NCBI GenBank assembly: GCA_964538855.1
Contig: CAZIEY010000001.1
Location: 163,059-227,058, forward strand
DNA: 64,000 nt
Reading direction: 5' to 3'
Source of the DNA: an uncultured Candidatus Saccharibacteria bacterium
GTDB taxonomy: Bacteria > Patescibacteriota > Minisyncoccia > Phycocordibacterales > JAACPR01
Shown one piece after another: positions 17,355-24,352 of the stretch (positions are counted from its first letter, which is position 1; every line of letters starts with the position of its first letter). The notes beneath the pieces were generated by a model. That model was given only the letters and a program-made list of their open reading frames with translations, ran no database searches and was not told the DNA's origin. The position numbers were made by a program, and so were the translations under genes.

Positions 17355-17804
17355 ATGACAAACTTGATCGAAAATCGCAAAGCAGGATTCAACTATGAAC
17401 TCGGAGACAAATACGAGGCTGGTATTGAATTGACTGGGCACGAAACGAAATCAATCAAAGCAGGCCGTGGAAATATGACCGGCTCTTTTATTGTGATTCG
17501 TGGTGGCGAGGCGTTTATTTCAGGACTCGAAATTACATCGTTTCAAGCAAACAACTCCCCAATCGATTTCGAACCGCGACGCATGCGCCGGCTGTTGCTC
17601 AAAAAAAGCGATATTTCAAAGCTCCAAATGGCGGAGCAACGCGACCGTTTGACACTCATCCCACTTTCGTTGTATAATAAGGGTAAGTTCGTGAAGCTAT
17701 CCTTTGCGGTAGCTCGCGGAAAAAAGAAGTCCGATAAGCGCGAATCCATTCGCCGCCGCGAAGACAACCGCGACATCGAACGCACCTTGAAATCACGTCG
17801 ATAA
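17355..17804 (+). CDS. smpB: SsrA-binding protein SmpB
   Basis: 149 aa. IENRKA..Y...YEAGIEL.G.E.KS motif family. Lys/Arg-rich C-terminal tail. Adjacent to the tmRNA. Confidence 0.9.
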   Translation: MTNLIENRKAGFNYELGDKYEAGIELTGHETKSIKAGRGNMTGSFIVIRGGEAFISGLEITSFQANNSPIDFEPRRMRRLLLKKSDISKLQMAEQRDRLTLIPLSLYNKGKFVKLSFAVARGKKKSDKRESIRRREDNRDIERTLKSRR

Positions 17805-17825
17805 TATATTCGGTCATTCACTGAA

Positions 17826-17950
17826 AAATATCGAATAAGTCAAAAGACCTGACGCATACTTTTTGAGTCTGGGTCCTCGCTCCAGGCATTGTCGCTGCGG
17901 AGGCCTCAAAAAGCACGCGTCATGTCTTTTATTAAACTTATTCGATATTT
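17826..17950. other. 125-bp nested imperfect palindrome (cruciform-capable hairpin) between smpB and ssrA
   Basis: Outer arms aaatatcgaataagt...acttattcgatattt (15 bp) plus caaaagac/gtctttt. Inner pairs tgacgc/gcgtca, ctttttgag/ctcaaaaag, and ctgg/ccag. Confidence 0.5.
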
Positions 17951-17954
17951 CTCA

Positions 17955-18326
17955 GGGGATGATCGGCTTCGATATACAATCGCCAATATATGTGCAGAAT
18001 AGAGCTCGAGTAACTCTTAAAAAGGCTCGAAACTACAAATGCAAAATCTGTCGTAAGCCCTTACTTTAAGGCAAACAAACTAGCATTCGCGTTCGCGTAA
18101 GCCAACACGACATCCGCGTATCTTACACCTGATACGATAAGGCGGGTGTTACCCCATCAGGTTAGGTGAAGTACACGCTCTTTGTACTTTTCCGAAACTC
18201 AAGGAGATCGGTCGCGCAACATTTCGTTCGCTCTAAGGTGCACGATCCAGAACAAAAAGCGTACTAGATTCTGTAGACTCATATATTGTCCTTGCATACA
18301 CGCGGGTTCGATTCCCGCCATCTCCA
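17955..18326 (+). ncRNA. ssrA: tmRNA (ssrA), one-piece; predicted tag ANKLAFAFA
   Basis: 5' end GGGGATGATCGGCTTCGA resembles the tmRNA 5' consensus. 3' T-arm GCGGG-TTCGATT-CCCGC and acceptor CATCTCC pair with 5' GGGGATG, including a G3-U70 pair. Resume codon GCA at 18071 and TAA at 18098 give the frame GCA AAC AAA CTA GCA TTC GCG TTC GCG. Confidence 0.8.
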
Positions 18327-18379
18327 CATTAAAAAGAAAATCACCCAACATTGGGTGATTTTCTTTTTAATGTGGAGAT
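18320..18379. repeat. Perfect inverted repeat with 29-bp arms and a 2-nt centre, overlapping the last nucleotides of ssrA
   Basis: atctccacattaaaaagaaaatcacccaa-ca-ttgggtgattttctttttaatgtggagat, verified base by base. Confidence 0.85.
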
Positions 18380-18535
18380 AAGAGGAGTAATGCGGAGCAT
18401 TACGACGGGAATCGAAAGCCGGAGCGGGTTACCTGTTTGGAGCGTTAGCGACAAATAGGTCGCGAGGCGGGGTCGCGAACACTTAGATTTTTATGAGCGA
18501 ATGCGAAATAAAAAGCTTAGTGATTTGTGACCGAT
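18372..18535 (+). ncRNA. Candidate structured RNA element, copy 1 (unnamed)
   Basis: Shares conserved blocks with 20139-20313: GTGGAGATAAGA, ACGACGGGAATCGAAAG, GGGGTCGCGAACACTTAGATTTTTATGAGCGAA, GCGAAATAAAAAGCTTAGTGATT.GTGACCGAT. Helix 18387-18403 shows compensatory changes relative to copy 2. Confidence 0.4.
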
Positions 18536-18663
18536 TCAAGACATTTTTCTCCAAAGTGATTCTAAGCTATTGGGATATTACGTAATCATTGACAAACCAC
18601 ACAACATTATGTAATGTACCAAATAGACGATTCATTTCCAACCCCAACCCCGAAGGAACTCTC

Positions 18664-19092
18664 ATGAACGCAACTGCAGATCTCATTCGCGACGACCGCT
18701 GCACCACAGCACTCAAACCGTTAGTCGAAGAGGGTGTCAACCGTCTGAAGACCTTCATCGTCTGCGCAAGCCTGGGCGATTTGAACAATTGGCACCTTCC
18801 CAAAGTCGGTCATGCCACCCTCAACCTAACGGTTCGGGATGGAAATATCGTCGAAGGGACGATTTCCATTCAGGATGGTGAAAACTTCACTGTCAAAGCC
18901 ATAGTCTCGGGACTGACGGGTAACTGCGTGGCGGTGATTGTGAATAAAAGCGAAGGTCCTGTGAAGCTGTATTTGAACATCCCACTCAAGGCTGACAGCA
19001 ACCCAGCTTTGTCAGCACTTTGTGAGATGAGAAAATGCGAGGAGCAGCAGCGAATTGAGAATGTCGCGACCAGGCTCAAAAACCTTCGATAG
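18664..19092 (+). CDS. Hypothetical protein (GC-rich)
   Basis: 142 aa from the ATG after the leader ccaaccccaaccccgaaggaactctc; the ORF opens at 18589. Followed by a terminator. Confidence 0.45.
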   Translation: MNATADLIRDDRCTTALKPLVEEGVNRLKTFIVCASLGDLNNWHLPKVGHATLNLTVRDGNIVEGTISIQDGENFTVKAIVSGLTGNCVAVIVNKSEGPVKLYLNIPLKADSNPALSALCEMRKCEEQQRIENVATRLKNLR

Positions 19093-19149
19093 TGGTAAAC
19101 CCACCCGGTGAAGCAACCGAAGAGTCCGAACCTCTTAAAACTGCCAAAC

Positions 19150-19190
19150 GGCACCTAGCGCTTTTAGCTCCTGGTGCCTTTACTTTTATT
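19150..19190 (+). terminator. Rho-independent terminator
   Basis: ggcacc...ggtgcc stem followed by tttacttttatt. Confidence 0.5.
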
Positions 19191-19198
19191 AACTGTCG

Positions 19199-19330
19199 AT
19201 AGAAGCGCCGGGAATCGAACCAGGAAGGGGTCGGGAAACCTGTGGTTTCCCGTGGAGGAAGGCAGTGAGCGATAGCGAGCGTTGGAAAACCGTGGGTTTC
19301 CAAGTTGATTCAATAGCGAAGCGACCCGCC
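19199..19330. other. GC-rich non-coding segment with two perfect hairpins and a minus-strand tRNA 3'-end-like fragment
   Basis: Hairpins cgggaaacc-tgt-ggtttcccg and ggaaaacc-gtg-ggtttcc. The reverse complement of 19199-19226 reads CCTGG-TTCGATT-CCCGG-CGCTTCT-A (T-arm plus 3' acceptor strand) with no matching 5' acceptor strand. Confidence 0.3.
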
Positions 19331-19377
19331 ATCCCTGCAATTTTAAAAAATCTATCAACATGTAGTATAATTCATTT

Positions 19378-19590
19378 ATGAAAAAGGCTTTTAAAATAAT
19401 ACTCTCGGTGTTGATTATATTTTTACTTTTGTCTGCATTACTAGCTTATCTAGTCTTTAGTGGACATATAGAATGTAATTTCCTAATTACAAACGGGCCT
19501 AGAGTAGAAGATTCGTTTATGTGTCCAATCATCGGTTTTTTGGGGTACATTTGGTATTTCATTTCGCTACCTTTTTCTCCATTCTTTTAG
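19378..19590 (+). CDS. Hypothetical small membrane protein (AT-rich)
   Basis: 70-aa ORF with two hydrophobic segments. Confidence 0.3.
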   Translation: MKKAFKIILSVLIIFLLLSALLAYLVFSGHIECNFLITNGPRVEDSFMCPIIGFLGYIWYFISLPFSPFF

Positions 19591-19809
19591 AATAAGCCTC
19601 TACATCACAAACAAGTCCTGGCCCCATACATTTACCACCTTAAAATAATGGTACAATTATTAGATGAGTAATTATAGAATACATCATTATTTACTAGTAA
19701 TAGTAATCACAATATTAACGATCATCGGTGCCTGGTATTATTTTACTAAAAAAATGTAAGCTGCGCTCGAGACAGCCAAGGTATCAAATCATATATTCTT
19801 AAATCAGAA

Positions 19810-20109
19810 TTGACTGCTTACGAAAATGTAATAAAAAATATCGACGGTAGTCAACATTTTGAAGACTGGAACATATTCCAAAAAATCAAAGATAGCGCGT
19901 CAATTTACGCACAGGACGTAAATAATTGTTACAGTGAACATACTTATCAGATAAAAAAAGGAAATATACTGGTTGAAGTAACCCAAGAGGAATTTCAAGA
20001 TTATTTAATGAGTAGCGCATTTAATAGCAATTTTTGTGAAAGTGCAGTTCAACTTACTAAGTCTGGCCCTAGCCCAGTCTTTATTAAAAATAATTTCTGT
20101 ACAAGATAA
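19810..20109 (+). CDS. Hypothetical protein
   Basis: 99-aa ORF, AT-rich, no motif. Confidence 0.3.
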   Translation: MTAYENVIKNIDGSQHFEDWNIFQKIKDSASIYAQDVNNCYSEHTYQIKKGNILVEVTQEEFQDYLMSSAFNSNFCESAVQLTKSGPSPVFIKNNFCTR

Positions 20110-20138
20110 TACCTTTCTAGTTGGTTCCAAATATTTCT

Positions 20139-20313
20139 GTGGAGATAAGAAGAGGTGCGCGGAGCGTACCGACGGGAATCGAAAGGCGCGGGCGGGGACC
20201 ACTCTGGTCGAGAGTATCGAGACCTGGGGCGCCGAGCCGGGGTCGCGAACACTTAGATTTTTATGAGCGAACGATAGAGAGCGAAATAAAAAGCTTAGTG
20301 ATTCGTGACCGAT
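20139..20313 (+). ncRNA. Candidate structured RNA element, copy 2 (unnamed)
   Basis: Direct, diverged copy (about 70% identity) of 18372-18535. Helix 20154-20170 (ggtgcgc-gga-gcgtacc) covaries with copy 1. Confidence 0.4.
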
Positions 20314-20362
20314 GATTAAAAATCTCTCCTATTTGATTTATACACACGCAAAAACACGCCTC

Positions 20363-20782
20363 TTATTTCACCGGAAATAAATGTTTAACAACTACAAGCA
20401 ACATTGTTGTTATCTGCAAAATAGTTGCAGTAATTAAAGTTCTAAAGTTCCAACTGTCCAAAGAAAAACCCAAATTCTTAAAGCCTTGATAAAAGGTAAT
20501 TGCAAACACTAACCCGGTTTCAACTGCTAAAAATAAAAACAATCTATCTAAAGTATTTCGCTTTAGAGCAATATTTTGTCTTAAATCTTCATTCTCAATT
20601 TCTTTCTTCTCCCGCTCATAGTCTCGTAGTTTATCTGGCACAGACTTACCTGAGCGAGAAAACGAGGATAAATATTTCTTGAAAAATTTGTTATCCGATA
20701 AATCTGAGTTTGATGATGTGATAAAACTCTTAAATAGCGCAATCTGCTCTTCCTGATTATTCTGAGACTTTGTATTTCCCAT
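20363..20782 (-). CDS. Hypothetical membrane protein (cytoplasmic N-domain, C-terminal TM pair)
   Basis: 139-aa ORF, last gene of the 22214-20363 minus-strand operon. Confidence 0.5.
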   Translation of the reverse strand: MGNTKSQNNQEEQIALFKSFITSSNSDLSDNKFFKKYLSSFSRSGKSVPDKLRDYEREKKEIENEDLRQNIALKRNTLDRLFLFLAVETGLVFAITFYQGFKNLGFSLDSWNFRTLITATILQITTMLLVVVKHLFPVK

Positions 20783-20786
20783 AGAT

Positions 20787-21368
20787 TTAACTTTCCAAGA
20801 GTTTTAACCTTTCTAGTCTTATAGACATCGCCAATGGAGAGACATCGAAAATCTCTGCGGTCTCTTCGATGTCCTTCACCTTACCCCACACCTCTCTCAC
20901 TAAATTTTCAGGCATAATTAGCTCGGCAGCAAAATTATTAGCCTCCTTCTCAATCTGACTGCTCTCTTGATCACTTAAACGAAACAACATTTTTGTACTA
21001 TCTAACGAATCCCCTCTGTCAATAATAGCGGATTCTATTTTTAATTTGTCTTGATGTAAAAAATAATGCCCTAATTCGTGAGCTAACGTAAAATGCTGTC
21101 GTGTTTTAGAATCATTTTTATTGATGATAATTGTAAATCTTTGTGCATCCTTCTCAAAAAAGATTACTCCTGATACATTGGACATATCATCAGTAAAATC
21201 GACATATGCAAATTTTAAATCTTGAATTTCACTTTCGATATTTTCATACGGAAAAGGAGACAGGTTTTTTGGATTGTATTTCTGTCTCACTTCTATAGCT
21301 TTAGATATAGCGCGTTCAATTTTTTGATCCATAGTGACAGTATTATATACGATAGGTTGCACACTCAC
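20787..21368 (-). CDS. ImmA/IrrE-family metallo-endopeptidase
   Basis: HELGHYFLH zinc motif and the downstream EANNFAAELIMP motif typical of the ImmA/IrrE (DUF955) family. Confidence 0.8.
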   Translation of the reverse strand: MSVQPIVYNTVTMDQKIERAISKAIEVRQKYNPKNLSPFPYENIESEIQDLKFAYVDFTDDMSNVSGVIFFEKDAQRFTIIINKNDSKTRQHFTLAHELGHYFLHQDKLKIESAIIDRGDSLDSTKMLFRLSDQESSQIEKEANNFAAELIMPENLVREVWGKVKDIEETAEIFDVSPLAMSIRLERLKLLES

Positions 21369-21416
21369 AATAATGCCCGCACAGAGTAACGAAAAATCGT
21401 AATATCTACTCTGAAC

Positions 21417-22214
21417 TTACTCAAGACTGGCTACCCCATCTGTACAAACAAACTTTCCCTCGTCTTTACTAAGCAAAAATGTACTATATATCAAATCTCC
21501 ACATGTTTGATAGTATCTCTTATCGTTAGATACTGTCTTGAATTCATAGTTATCTTTGTTTTTATGTTTTAAATACGAATTACAAACCTTCTGGTCTGCT
21601 TTTTGTAAAAATTTGGAATCACAGTCATTATCTTCAGCATAAATAAGTGCAATTTCGCTAATGCTTATACTTTTTACTTTCTTTTCTGGAATTTTATAAT
21701 CCACAAACATTAAATCCACCAAATCAGAGAGCATCTCTCTACATTTATCACTAGGCGCTTCTCCGCGACACTCTTGATCGTATTTTTTATCTAATTTTAT
21801 ATATTTAGGATTTTTAGAATAATTCAAACCACCTGTATATGTTGAAGGATAAGAAGATGTGTAACTTGGTACATACGTAGGTGTGTAGCTAGGTGTATAT
21901 GTTGGAGTGTAACTTGGAACAGAATACGAATTACTTTCATACAAAGACTTCCCTGTGTAGTAACTTGGATCTGTAATATAAGTTGGAGTATCCCAAGTCG
22001 AGCCTCGAGTACCATACGAACTATTGTATAAACCCTGGCTCGGCTTGTATCCATAATTATCGTACTTCAAACCGTTTGGATTGCTTCTAACATGAGGAGC
22101 AACGTAAGTTCCATTTGATCGATAATACCCTTTAACACTTACATAAGCATCGACATTAAATAACGGTGTAAATGACAATAACAATAAAAATAGACCGATT
22201 AGTAGTTTTTTCAT
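21417..22214 (-). CDS. Secreted Tyr/Ser/Thr/Pro-rich repeat protein with Cys-containing C-terminal domain
   Basis: Signal peptide MKKLLIGLFLLLLSFTPLFNVDA. Tandem PSYTPTYTPSYTPTYVPSYTSSYPSTY repeats (15-bp DNA period at about 21850-21960). Internal Met chosen; the ORF extends to 22313. Confidence 0.6.
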   Translation of the reverse strand: MKKLLIGLFLLLLSFTPLFNVDAYVSVKGYYRSNGTYVAPHVRSNPNGLKYDNYGYKPSQGLYNSSYGTRGSTWDTPTYITDPSYYTGKSLYESNSYSVPSYTPTYTPSYTPTYVPSYTSSYPSTYTGGLNYSKNPKYIKLDKKYDQECRGEAPSDKCREMLSDLVDLMFVDYKIPEKKVKSISISEIALIYAEDNDCDSKFLQKADQKVCNSYLKHKNKDNYEFKTVSNDKRYYQTCGDLIYSTFLLSKDEGKFVCTDGVASLE

Positions 22215-22419
22215 ATAACCCCATCCTACCCCCTTCCAAAAATAAAACAAGCACTCCCTACTCACACCCCACCCCATCACCATCCCTATCCACATCAAAC
22301 ACATCCGCACCAATCACTCGTACCACTCCCGTATAATGAGGTCCGTTACCAGAGCCGCCAGCGCAGTCATATGTCACGTGGTGCCAAGCTATTGAAGGAT
22401 TACGCACCACTTGACATTA

Positions 22420-22448
22420 CTAATATATAAATGTATATTATCAAACGA
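22420..22448 (+). promoter_or_regulatory. Sigma70-like promoter (TTGACA-17-TATATT)
   Basis: -35 at 22420-22425, 17-nt spacer, -10 at 22443-22448, upstream of the 22488 ORF. Confidence 0.45.
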
Positions 22449-22487
22449 CCCCAACCCGTTCTTTACCCACCACATCAGGAGACAGCA

Positions 22488-22763
22488 ATGAAAAACCCCT
22501 CGGAATATTCTGGTCCGTTCATCATCGAAATCTGGAACGAAGCTAAGACGGAACACGTGCCGTCTTCCGCAAGGATTATTGATGGAAATCAGATCAGTGT
22601 CACATCCGGGCGTTTCCACAACTCCTTGGGTGGCATCCAATTCTATTCGGACGGGCAACCCTTCAGCTTTCATGCCTTATATATTCGCAGGATCACCAAT
22701 CCCAGCGGGCAAATTATCTGGAGGAACTGGCATAACAAGGATGAGCCGGTACCCGCCAAATAA
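22488..22763 (+). CDS. Hypothetical protein (GC-rich)
   Basis: 91 aa from the ATG after the RBS caggagacagca. Followed by a strong terminator. Confidence 0.45.
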   Translation: MKNPSEYSGPFIIEIWNEAKTEHVPSSARIIDGNQISVTSGRFHNSLGGIQFYSDGQPFSFHALYIRRITNPSGQIIWRNWHNKDEPVPAK

Positions 22764-22773
22764 CCTCCGCCCA

Positions 22774-22820
22774 CCCCGCTAGTGAACCCCCGTTAGTTCA
22801 CTAGCGGGGTTTCTTTTTAT
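22774..22820 (+). terminator. Rho-independent terminator
   Basis: Perfect 12-bp stem ccgctagtgaac/gttcactagcgg followed by gtttcttttt. Confidence 0.7.
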
Positions 22821-22916
22821 CCTGCCACCTACCTCACACACAATCTTGACTGCGACCCTCACATTGCTATAATACATTTCGTATCCACTCGAAACGTACT
22901 GCATAAGATTCCGTCC

Positions 22917-23426
22917 TTATGTGGTGCGTTTCATTTTATAAGCAAGCTTTTTCTTAAGATCATTCAAAGATTGCAATCTATCATGTGCAGCGAGGCATAA
23001 AATCTTGGCGCAAAAGTTTTTATTAGGACTTACTACCGCCTCAAACTTAGAAACCGAATATAAATACTGGACCAAAGAATAAAAATCACCGTCGTTACTT
23101 ACAATCACCGCGTTTTCATAATCATCGAACTCAAGCATTGCAGTCAAAACCAGATCTGCATCGACATTCCCCTTGCGATGACCTCGTGCATCAAACGTAG
23201 TGGGTTTAAATTTCAAAATAAAACCAGCGTGCTGTAACGTATCATACAAAGACTGATTATTAGGTACAAAACCAATGAATAAGTAAGCTCGTTCAACACC
23301 ATATTTTTCTCTTAAGTACACCCGAAACTTTGCGTAATCCAATTTCCAACCAAGGGACTGAATACCTAAATGTAAGTTCTGACTGTCGATAAAAGCATAA
23401 TTGCGGCGATTAGAAATCACACGCAC
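22917..23426 (-). CDS. NYN-domain (LabA-like) protein
   Basis: AFIDSQNLH, DADLVLTAM, and VIVSNDGDF motifs of the NYN/PIN-like nuclease fold. Confidence 0.75.
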   Translation of the reverse strand: MRVISNRRNYAFIDSQNLHLGIQSLGWKLDYAKFRVYLREKYGVERAYLFIGFVPNNQSLYDTLQHAGFILKFKPTTFDARGHRKGNVDADLVLTAMLEFDDYENAVIVSNDGDFYSLVQYLYSVSKFEAVVSPNKNFCAKILCLAAHDRLQSLNDLKKKLAYKMKRTT

Positions 23427-23793
23427 ATTATACTGACGGGGGTTAAAATATTTTTAAAGAAAGATTAAAGAAATTGTGAGGTTTTTTCTTGTCTTCACTT
23501 GGATAATTACATATAAATAACTTGTGGCATACAATAATCATGATACCCAAAAAAAAATAACAACGAACCAATTATCCATTCTGGAAATATGGAGGAAGAT
23601 TAAAAGAAAAAACACCAACCGAAGTTGATGTGTTTTCGTGTGCCTGGTTACAGTTTTAAAGTGACCGTGAGAGGGTAAATACCCACCAAACACATTTATA
23701 GTATAGCGCGATTTTCATAAAAATCAAGTCCGCGTTTTAACCAATTCCCCCTCCATATTTGCACCACCACCCACCACACGATACTATTACATC

Positions 23794-24282
23794 ATGAACA
23801 TCCAACCACTACGCCCTTGGGAAAAATTATTAGACATTATTCTCATACCAATCATGCGACTCGTTTCCGGTGCACCCGCAGAGGAACCTCAAAGAAGTCA
23901 TGTGTGGAATGTAAAAACTCTCACTCCGCGAGATGTTGAGAACTTAGACAAAAGCCTAATGGTCACAAACAGTGGAATGTCGCGCGGCGTGCAAAGAAGC
24001 AAAATCATACCGAGACATCACATTCCAATTTTTGGCGGATGGAAAAACTATATCGTCATCTCACCCAAAAATCCTGAGGCAGGATGGTTCATTGGCTGGA
24101 ACACACATAAAGTTACCGAACATTCTCGAATCGAATTGAGAACTCCTGTGCGAATGTTAGTTGCTCCCGAACAAGTGCAATTTTTTGCCTTTTCTATATC
24201 CGGAGAGCAAATTCGAATCGAACAAATCGGAGAAGGCGTTGTCGGTGATAAAAGTCAGTATTCGAAATTGCCGTTGTTGTAG
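23794..24282 (+). CDS. Hypothetical protein
   Basis: 162-aa ORF preceded by a C-rich leader (ccccctcc...caccaccacccaccac). Confidence 0.45.
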   Translation: MNIQPLRPWEKLLDIILIPIMRLVSGAPAEEPQRSHVWNVKTLTPRDVENLDKSLMVTNSGMSRGVQRSKIIPRHHIPIFGGWKNYIVISPKNPEAGWFIGWNTHKVTEHSRIELRTPVRMLVAPEQVQFFAFSISGEQIRIEQIGEGVVGDKSQYSKLPLL

Positions 24283-24352
24283 TTACGAACCCGCCCCTAC
24301 CCACATCAAAATTCCATAAAAACCAACCCAAAAATGATAAACTGAAGTAGTT

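Follow-up and report, generated by a model that had tools for sequence, protein, structure and literature searches.

Folded, reading-frame-free elements behind tRNA and tmRNA genes as candidate miniature T-loop insertion elements

Downstream of its transfer-messenger RNA (tmRNA) gene, ssrA, the 64,000-nt stretch of DNA analysed here (the window; positions 163,059 to 227,058 of contig CAZIEY010000001.1, from an uncultured Candidatus Saccharibacteria bacterium) carries two diverged copies of a folded element, at 18372-18553 and 20139-20330. A first-pass annotation, made from the letters of the window, had proposed these two segments as a novel structured RNA. They prove to belong to a family with at least 150 model matches in metagenomes, so the two-copy scope was too narrow; the insertion-module behaviour of the family at tRNA and tmRNA genes also lies beyond that interpretation. 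Because a covarying, strand-specific fold is combined with an inverted copy of the target and with the lack of an open reading frame (ORF), we favour, tentatively and with slightly less than even confidence, the reading that the family consists of ORF-less, non-autonomous, miniature insertion elements that specifically target tRNA and tmRNA genes, at the T-loop and 3' end, in bacteria of the candidate phyla radiation (CPR)/Patescibacteria type.

The family was delineated by one metagenome scan seeded with the 19-mer TTAGTGATTYGTGACCGAT, chosen from a conserved 3' block that is kept in the syntenic relative L007 (contig loci are numbered L), and all counts of homologues are among the matches listed. 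The 19-mer matches at least 120 metagenome contigs, nearly all of them with complete elements; in L028 (2163-2181) and L033 (938-956) the matches appear to be due to chance and lie in homologous coding regions. A covariance model, R1, built from 61 sequences (138 positions, 37 pairs), found 126 matches in L017-L116 and 26 in other loci, 152 in all, including diverged copies that lack the seed. Within the window it returned exactly two, at 18396-18549 (114.6 bits, E 3e-27) and 20163-20327 (93.2 bits, E 9e-22), the E-values being rough, as the model calibration was shortened. Taxonomic breadth is read from SmpB names only; the closest named relatives of the window SmpB are Pacebacteria, Vogelbacteria, Nomurabacteria and Parcubacteria, which marks the organism as CPR/Patescibacteria-like. 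A pattern run against a genome collection, CGGGAATCGAAAGN{30,60}GGGTCGCGAAC, was too strict, its sole match (L003, 2226-2301) being a chance one in a coding ORF of Verrucomicrobiia.

The layout of the units is constant. The tRNA gene runs to position 74 and is followed by a spacer (S), a segment X', the core (K, ending ...GTGAC), a segment X and unrelated flanking DNA. X corresponds to tRNA positions 56-74, starting from C56 of the T-loop, and X' is the reverse complement of positions 54-74, sometimes interrupted by a hairpin, P1.1. The spacer comprises an A-tract, a GC-containing hairpin and a T-tract; equivalent spacers occur in all tRNA-adjacent members, and a terminator-like palindrome is found directly upstream of nearly every copy. 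A unit X-S-X'-K measures ~175-230 nt, with a folded element of ~130 nt and a core of ~115 nt. The right direct repeat begins exactly at C56 and is 19-20 nt long in many loci (exact in L019, L020, L035, L036, L038, L039, L053, L102 and L113) and decayed in others; in L026 it reaches 56 nt, comprising X plus part of S. Throughout the family, the 5' strand of the element is the Watson-Crick complement of the tRNA 3' strand. At G.U sites of the T-stem it matches the 3' strand by exact complementarity in 19 cases and carries the tRNA's own base in 3, and a decayed tRNA duplicate was accordingly rejected as its origin. As a rule, TGTAG stands before the 5' strand of tRNA-linked members (its GT pairs with AC of positions 73-74 and is followed by a bulged A and by G1), creating a GTAG tetranucleotide like that needed by REP-associated transposases; tmRNA-linked members, that of the window included, have GTGG, with no extra A.

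Annotation of all loci with ARAGORN allowed 117 distinct copies to be classified by context. A same-strand gene lies 27-89 nt upstream of 57 of them, a tRNA gene in 49 and a tmRNA gene in 8; a further 12 are later units of an array, 23 are too near a contig end to judge, and 25 have no called tRNA, although several of these still follow an uncalled tRNA or tmRNA 3' end or a decayed X-S remnant. Gly tRNA accounts for 21 copies, Arg for 5, and Leu, Ala, Asp and Phe for 3 each, with nine other types besides. Across the same contigs, which were picked for carrying the element, 55 of 126 tRNA and tmRNA genes are occupied; the 71 element-free genes have no downstream reverse complement of their own 3' end above chance. 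The few genes that seemed to be exceptions lie in four loci outside the first model search (L118, L128, L129, L133) and in two whose element had no close match in it (L054, L105); by motif searches all of these carry the element, those past L116 also by a second model search. Ahead of seemingly solitary elements in L042 (~1880-1925), L030 and L084 we noted tRNA- or tmRNA-like 3' ends that ARAGORN did not call, possibly belonging to truncated tmRNA genes or to intron-containing tRNAs of the kind reported for Patescibacteria, where the introns are group I and interrupt the anticodon loop at position 35/36 (PMC13011429).

The element folds on the strand that is sense for the neighbouring tRNA. 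For copies 1 and 2, respectively, the folding energy of the plus strand is -67.8 (z -6.0) and -72.0 kcal/mol (z -4.1), and that of the minus strand -45.2 (z -3.9) and -51.8 kcal/mol (z -2.0). The fold comprises a closing helix, P1, a junction AAAG, P2, a second junction GG, and a long hairpin, P3-P4. P2 is built from a 3-bp GNC/GN'C stem, a G-N-A/G-A internal loop and a variable hairpin. P3-P4 contains a G.U pair conserved in 98 of 105 sequences, followed by a pair that occurs as a GC/GU/AU series, and further along a bulged A, a U.U mismatch and a variable tip. On the minus strand, G.U pairs would be C.A mismatches, and the conserved G.U together with the GC/GU/AU series fixes the plus strand as the folded one; the orientation that the first-pass annotation had drawn from G.U pairs in the two copies is upheld.

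Base pairing in the family was compared with shuffled and slid alignments, using one alignment fitted to the model and one made from sequence only with MAFFT. In the former, 89.6% of cells are paired, against 74.0% after shuffling and ~40% after sliding, and the covariation score is 0.367 against ~0.06 for slid alignments; in the latter, the values are 89.2% against 77.8% and ~38%, and 0.311 against ~0.07. Both sides change in 34 of the 37 pairs of the model-fitted alignment. Among the strongly covarying pairs reported by RNAalifold is one with 21 CG, 18 GC, 14 AU and 3 UA. As the search seed fixes the 3' strand of P3, covariation in P3 rests on the diverged copies only.

The same behaviour is visible between the two window copies, as had been noted at the outset. 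They align over ~190 columns, with identity in the blocks originally named, and the 18-mer GGGGTCGCGAACACTTAG is present twice against an expectation of 0.02. Between the hairpins at 18387-18403 and 20154-20170 (GGTGCGC-GGA-GCGTACC), three pairs are fully compensated and one A-U becomes G.U; in the long-range helix GGTCGCGAA/TTYGTGACC, the Y pairs as G.U in the first copy and as G-C in the second; and an AT-rich hairpin retains its stem as its loop goes from 13 to 21 nt. Further homologues keep the compensatory changes, so that the original proposal withstood the refutation test set for it, and the P1.1 hairpin of copy 1 shows them not only towards copy 2 but also towards L128, L062, L032 and L095. 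Two of the original suggestions needed a different explanation. The TCTCC proposed to close against the 5' GGAGA is present at 18548-18552 and 20325-20329, and this closing helix is accounted for by inverted and direct copies of the tmRNA 3' end. Likewise, the tmRNA likeness of GACGGGAATCGAA is real, yet it does not concern the D-loop/P2 junction: the block is nearly the reverse complement of the adjacent tmRNA gene's T-loop together with the 3' strand of its T-stem, found as GGCGGGAATCGAACC on the minus strand at 18305-18319.

Of the proposed structured RNA, the conserved, strand-specific, covarying fold stands; the folded molecule itself may be a transcript or single-stranded DNA, given the terminator-like palindrome upstream and the C-GNA-G triloops. 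Triloops make up 115 of 257 predicted terminal loops; C-GNA-G accounts for 47, GNRA for 4 and UNCG for none. Very stable DNA mini-hairpins such as d(GCGAAGC) are characterised by the C-GNA-G triloop. This predicted loop spectrum, together with the terminator-like hairpin ahead of nearly every unit, gives a hint towards single-stranded DNA.

Three other interpretations were tried and dropped. Indels of 2, 1 and 8 nt between the two copies speak against coding; a sponge of the Csr/Rsm type was suggested by the many GGA motifs of copy 1, which are not conserved in copy 2; and a canonical kink-turn in P2 fails because the loop, at 3 x 2 nt, is two nucleotides too short. Separately, two independent partial deletions, in L007 (10868-10910) and L062 (1590-1630), have left only the 3' half of P4-P3 (AAATAAAAAG.TTAGTGATTYGTGACCGATTC), with both endpoints in the P4 loop. 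This half is the best-conserved part of the family and may serve a purpose of its own, for instance in binding a protein or as the site of a crossover.

Several observations point to units changing place. Identical core subtypes occur behind different tRNAs, and the spacers go with them: one spacer frame is found behind Gly(tcc), Glu(ttc) and Arg(cct), another behind Gly(tcc), Gly(gcc) and Arg(gcg). Spacer and core thus travel together between isotypes, and because the same frames follow different tRNAs, the sequences indicate that S belongs to the element and not to the locus. Units also form arrays. L072 holds two complete X-S-X'-K units head to tail with a period of 176 nt, and in other arrays the units are joined via the X/X' hairpin or a CGAT-GAACC junction. 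Presence is polymorphic among relatives of the window. In L015 the ssrA site is empty and followed by a plain terminator, and in L007, which is syntenic and has an SmpB 71% identical to that of the window, only the last 32 nt of the element remain, directly after the tmRNA gene and with 94-97% identity. Among the closest relatives, L062, L032 and L095 have a unit of the copy-2 type next to the tmRNA gene, and L128 has one of the copy-1 type; in the window, the copy-2 type is located 1.8 kb further out.

We propose that a unit X-S-X'-K would insert at tRNA position 55|56. The element's own X would restore the tRNA gene, S would provide a terminator, and the original X would be displaced beyond K, where the 19-20 nt direct repeat would persist or decay. 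The observed order X-S-X'-K-X is explained by this step, since insertion of X-S-X'-K at 55|56 yields exactly that order. Repeated insertion would build head-to-tail arrays with the oldest unit furthest from the gene, as copy 2 of the window might be. In integron attC sites and in the attP of CTX phage, recombination takes place on a folded single strand whose hairpin stem mimics a double-stranded target. By analogy, we infer that the element may recombine as a folded single strand, its X/X' helix mimicking the double-stranded target, and that K may bind a recombinase or cofactor encoded elsewhere. In its fullest form, the proposal is that of a new class of ORF-less mobile elements in T-loops of ultra-small CPR genomes, integrating as a folded strand with a target-mimicking closing helix, with a three-way-junction core that recruits an unlinked host or phage recombinase or itself acts as an RNA cofactor, and rebuilding the tRNA gene and donating a terminator with each insertion; we hold this more cautiously, as a possibility somewhat below even.

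A number of points weigh against a mobile element. Around ~100 loci, with 431 neighbouring ORFs, no gene for a recombinase, integrase, transposase or reverse transcriptase is linked, which leaves the enzyme wholly hypothetical. Neither an excised circle nor a clean pair of empty and filled alleles was observed, and scans of viral contigs and BLAST searches of phages and plasmids gave no match to the element. A target-specific X and X' is needed for each of at least 15 tRNA types, and the origin of new specificities is unaccounted for. A conserved G.U pair and recurrent internal loops of the GA type are well-known marks of RNA and lean in that direction. Finally, copy 1 has stayed intact since the split from L007, whose SmpB has diverged so far, and the order tRNA-Gly, element, HU gene recurs in five loci; this long retention and this layout fit a host-beneficial RNA at least as well.

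Such an RNA is the strongest alternative, although we consider it rather unlikely. It would be a structured non-coding RNA made by read-through from the tRNA or tmRNA gene, with P1 as a tRNA-like handle whose 3' strand is identical to the tRNA; RNase P, RNase Z and the CCA-adding enzyme would excise and stabilise the core, which would bind a protein or another RNA, and the spread among tRNA loci would be old, with the flanks kept matched by concerted evolution. The strong covariation, the conserved G.U and the GC/GU/AU series on the tRNA-sense strand agree with this, as do GA/GAA-type internal loops three times per unit, the invariable co-orientation with highly expressed RNA genes nearby, the long-term retention of copy 1 and the conserved housekeeping neighbourhoods, in which genes for an HtrA-like protease, SmpB-sized proteins, LepA, RNase Y, HU, MscS and prephenate dehydratase recur. 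P1 moreover reproduces the 12-bp acceptor/T minihelix, the minimal substrate of tRNA-processing enzymes. Read-through is, however, hard to reconcile with the T-tract palindrome between almost every unit and its tRNA, where a promoter would not fit either. In the minimum-free-energy fold with the tRNA included, the 5' strand pairs with the tRNA 3' half, so that the tRNA would misfold; the 3' strand has decayed in many loci, both window copies included; and GNRA and UNCG loops are nearly absent. The insertion signature, the common spacers and the head-to-tail units require mobility in any case.

The remaining alternatives fare less well against the same evidence. A guide-RNA-like transcript, which we regard as improbable, would join K as scaffold to a 19-nt guide (the right X) and direct homing by an unlinked RNA-guided nuclease or recombinase, comparable to the omega RNA of TnpB/IscB or the bridge RNA of IS110, to a target placed after the T-loop GTTCGAT as its transposon-associated or protospacer-adjacent motif. 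The order of scaffold and target-identical segment with a boundary fixed at C56, the resemblance of the element end ...ACCGAT to the target ...TTCGAT, and flanks matching at least 15 tRNA types, as if specificity were programmable, are in its favour; yet genes for TnpB, IscB, IS110 or Cas proteins were not found near any copy, the supposed guide would sit in a perfect helix with X' and has decayed in many otherwise intact copies, Rfam gives no match to HEARO or other omega RNA families, and the upstream terminator is again in the way. More doubtful still, and very improbable in our view, is a small self-cleaving or catalytic RNA whose 5' strand would act as a substrate-binding arm on the tRNA 3' end, for 3' maturation of tRNA and tmRNA or for mobility at the RNA level. 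In its favour are the tandem units, a complementarity to tRNA positions 54-74 reminiscent of a guide, and a conserved three-way junction that has non-canonical positions and highly conserved joining nucleotides, but no Rfam 15 ribozyme family matches, the pairing needs unfolded acceptor and T arms, there is no reverse transcriptase to make an RNA-level insertion heritable, and the terminator lies upstream. That the copies have no function, as decaying duplicates of tRNA or tmRNA 3' ends, palindromic terminators or chance local duplications, could be read from the degenerate second arms of both window copies and the partial deletions in L007 and L062, and is effectively refuted by a family found on at least 120 contigs and showing covariation in 34 of 37 pairs, a core unrelated to tRNA sequence and a 5' strand not copied from the tRNA's own 5' strand.

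The window locus illustrates both the intact and the decayed parts of the proposed insertion element (Table 1). The tmRNA gene has no encoded CCA and ends in ...CTCCACAT; its tag peptide terminates in AFAFA and not in the usual ALAA-type end. X, S and X' fold as one long interrupted hairpin with z -12.5 (RNA) and -14.1 (DNA), and when the tmRNA 3' end is included, X' pairs with the tmRNA's own segment from the T-loop to the 3' end in both RNA and DNA folding. The stretch from the tmRNA 3' end through the spacer to the 5' strand, 18309-18416, is a near-perfect palindrome of ~100 nt with a 27-bp uninterrupted stem (18320-18380). Short-read (Logan) contigs of the window population and of related populations stop at or before it. 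Exact-protein look-ups with SmpB, ORF142 and the M78 peptidase returned only the same population, on contigs broken at repeats, and contigs of closer SmpB relatives (94%, 76% and 74%) end before or at the tmRNA 3' end. Only 6 nt of the right X of copy 1 match the tmRNA 3' end exactly, and this decayed X and its flank are common to L007. Copy 2 has neither a spacer S nor a left X upstream.

Table 1. Features of the ssrA locus and of the two element copies in the window
Feature	Position	Strand	Description	Model
smpB gene	17355-17804		upstream of the tmRNA gene	
tmRNA gene (ssrA), anchor of copy 1	17955-18329	+	Rfam RF00023, 96.6 bits; ARAGORN 17955-18327, tag AKSVVSPYFKANKLAFAFA	
X, left direct repeat and target segment	18309-18327	+	tmRNA T-loop C56 to discriminator+1, CGATTCCCGCCATCTCCAC	
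S, palindromic terminator-like spacer	18328-18371	+	A-tract, hairpin ATCACCCAA-CA-TTGGGTGAT, T-tract	
X'a	18372-18379	+	GTGGAGAT, reverse complement of tmRNA acceptor 3' strand and discriminator; outer 5' strand of P1	
P1.1 hairpin, optional	18387-18403	+	GTAATGC-GGA-GCATTAC, between the halves of the 5' strand; C-GNA-G triloop	
X'b	18404-18416	+	GACGGGAATCGAA, near reverse complement of tmRNA T-loop and T-stem 3' strand; inner 5' strand of P1	
K, conserved core of copy 1	18417-18531	+	junction AAAG, P2, P3-P4 (GGTCGCGAACACTTAG ... CTTAGTGATTTGTGACC)	R1
Degenerate right X of copy 1	18532-18553	+	CGATTCAAGACATTTTTCTCCA, decayed 3' strand of P1	
5' part of copy 2	20139-20146 (X'a); 20154-20170 (P1.1); 20171-20183 (X'b)	+	X'a GTGGAGAT; X'b GACGGGAATCGAA	
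K, conserved core of copy 2	20184-20309	+		R1
Degenerate right X after copy 2	20310-20329	+	CGATGATTAAAAATCTCTCC	

The region downstream of ssrA (18554-24300) is island-like and differs between relatives, the distance from ssrA to the M3 peptidase gene being ~10 kb here and 3.4 kb in L007. It contains small plus-strand ORFs of contrasting GC content (18664-19092, ~50%; 19378-19590 and 19810-20109, ~32%), followed by minus-strand genes for a 139-aa ORF, an M78/IrrE-like peptidase (20787-21368), a 298-aa ORF and an NYN-domain protein (22917-23426). No integrase domain was found in the window ORFs near the copies. After copy 1, an intergenic stretch at 18556-18625, CCAAAGTG.T.C.AAGCTATTG ... TTGAC, is conserved at 10925-10985 of L007, where the downstream genes are different; from its sequence it may be a promoter or operator. 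A separate plus-strand repeat, cand3 (19190-19345; GAAGCGCCGGGAATCGAACCAGGAAGGGGTCGGGAAACCTGTGGTTTCCC...GACCCGCCATCCCTGC), begins with a T-loop complement and ends with a tmRNA-like 3' strand, and its homologue in L062 (1525-1590) is joined directly to the 3' block of the main element. Cand3 was rejected as a third copy: it scores 6.6 bits with R1 with filters off, and its fold is no better than shuffles (z +0.41).

Genomes of CPR/Patescibacteria, at ~1 Mb, are thought to be poor in mobile DNA and regulatory RNA. A fold of ~130 nt that is multi-copy and conserved across deep divergence runs against this expectation. If it is mobile, it would represent targeting of essential RNA genes through a target-mimicking hairpin without an enzyme of its own, relevant to programmable insertion and to the mechanisms of recombination; should it be an RNA, it would be a major undescribed class of non-coding RNA tied to tRNA and tmRNA biology. 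In practical terms, long perfect palindromes break short-read assemblies at tRNA and tmRNA genes, and duplicated tRNA 3' ends can mislead the annotation of tRNAs, introns and islands.

The family is absent from Rfam 15 and from the papers covered by searches with sequence strings and by topic. At the gathering threshold, Rfam 15 finds only the tmRNA and two tRNAs in the whole window, and at E<=10 nothing on either core in the region 17800-20900, in line with the first-pass annotation, which had recognised no known family; at E<=0.1, seven other loci gave tRNA, tmRNA and sub-threshold miRNA-like hairpin matches on the palindrome only. Among RNAs, the closest in position are processed small RNAs linked to tRNAs (of the 3' external transcribed spacer or mascRNA type) and permuted tmRNA, which likewise lie in a 3' trailer and with whose acceptor/T minihelix P1 is comparable. 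Through the arrangement of 3' end, loop and complementary strand, the permuted tmRNA model (RF04321) gives weak sub-threshold scores of 21.8 and 30 bits against a gathering threshold of 47, the 21.8 bits in the window falling on the tmRNA 3' end and spacer. Unlike these RNAs, the element is separated from the gene by a terminator, has no tag reading frame and has a core unrelated to tmRNA; its complement has A-U where tmRNA has G3.U70, and RF00023 does not match it. Omega and bridge RNAs similarly combine a structured scaffold of ~100-180 nt with segments identical or complementary to the insertion target, but they are encoded in or next to a nuclease or recombinase gene; here the target-matching segments pair with each other, and there is no Rfam similarity. 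P1 could pass for the a1/a2 helix of a retron msr-msd, although no reverse transcriptase was found in the window neighbourhood or the neighbour clusters. A group I intron in the T-loop would require a catalytic core of at least 200 nt against the ~115 nt seen; the upstream gene is complete and RF00028 does not match.

Among mobile DNA, islands and prophages that integrate into tRNA and tmRNA genes with a tyrosine integrase share the insertion into the 3' part of the gene, the direct repeat from T-loop to gene end that restores it (present in the family, decayed in the window copies), the tandem arrays at one gene and the variable region downstream of ssrA. The element differs in its length of ~175-230 nt, in lacking an integrase and any ORF, and in having an inverted target copy and a covarying folded core, which double-stranded att sites do not need. 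Repetitive extragenic palindromic (REP) sequences and REPINs with their RAYT transposases, the palindromes of IS200/IS605 and miniature inverted-repeat transposable elements (MITEs) are likewise short multi-copy repeats between genes that form hairpins, carry no ORF and rely on a single-copy enzyme encoded elsewhere, a group that includes a rickettsial palindromic element in a tmRNA gene; the GTAG that often precedes the element's 5' strand is a REP-like feature. Unlike in MITEs, the inverted arms copy each adjacent tRNA and are not fixed element ends, and the direct repeats of 19-56 nt have a fixed left and a variable right boundary, with no target-site duplication of fixed length. The strictly tRNA-linked site, the core with its conserved fold and the absence of RAYT or TnpA genes nearby set the family apart from the whole group.

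The nearest parallels are sites that recombine as folded single strands. If the element acts as a single strand, it resembles integron attC in being a folded recombination site in which structure is conserved over sequence in the variable parts; P3-P4 forms, like attC, a long imperfect hairpin in which a base is bulged, the centre is mismatched and the terminal structure varies, and the small same-strand ORFs of differing GC content between the window copies recall integron cassettes. On the other hand, the RYYYAAC/GTTRRRY core sites were not found in the window copies or the family alignment, the base of P3 being GGTCGCGAAC/GTGATTYGTGACC; the element is a three-way junction and not a single hairpin (attC, 57-141 nt) and is anchored at tRNA genes, not attI; and no IntI was seen, most copies having no cassette. 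In the folded attP of CTX phage and of integrative mobile elements exploiting Xer (IMEX), two inverted, target-like segments pair and so mimic the double-stranded chromosomal target, and integration of such an attP hairpin predicts exactly the order X-S-X'-K-X. Tandem arrays are shared as well, and so, for the element as proposed, is an enzyme acting in trans. Here the target is the tRNA T-loop and not dif, the element is 30-fold smaller than a phage, and both the single-stranded DNA stage and the enzyme are hypothetical. As the defining set of features of no known family is found in full, we rate this family as lying outside every known kind, with the reservation that its molecules may be RNA or single-stranded DNA.

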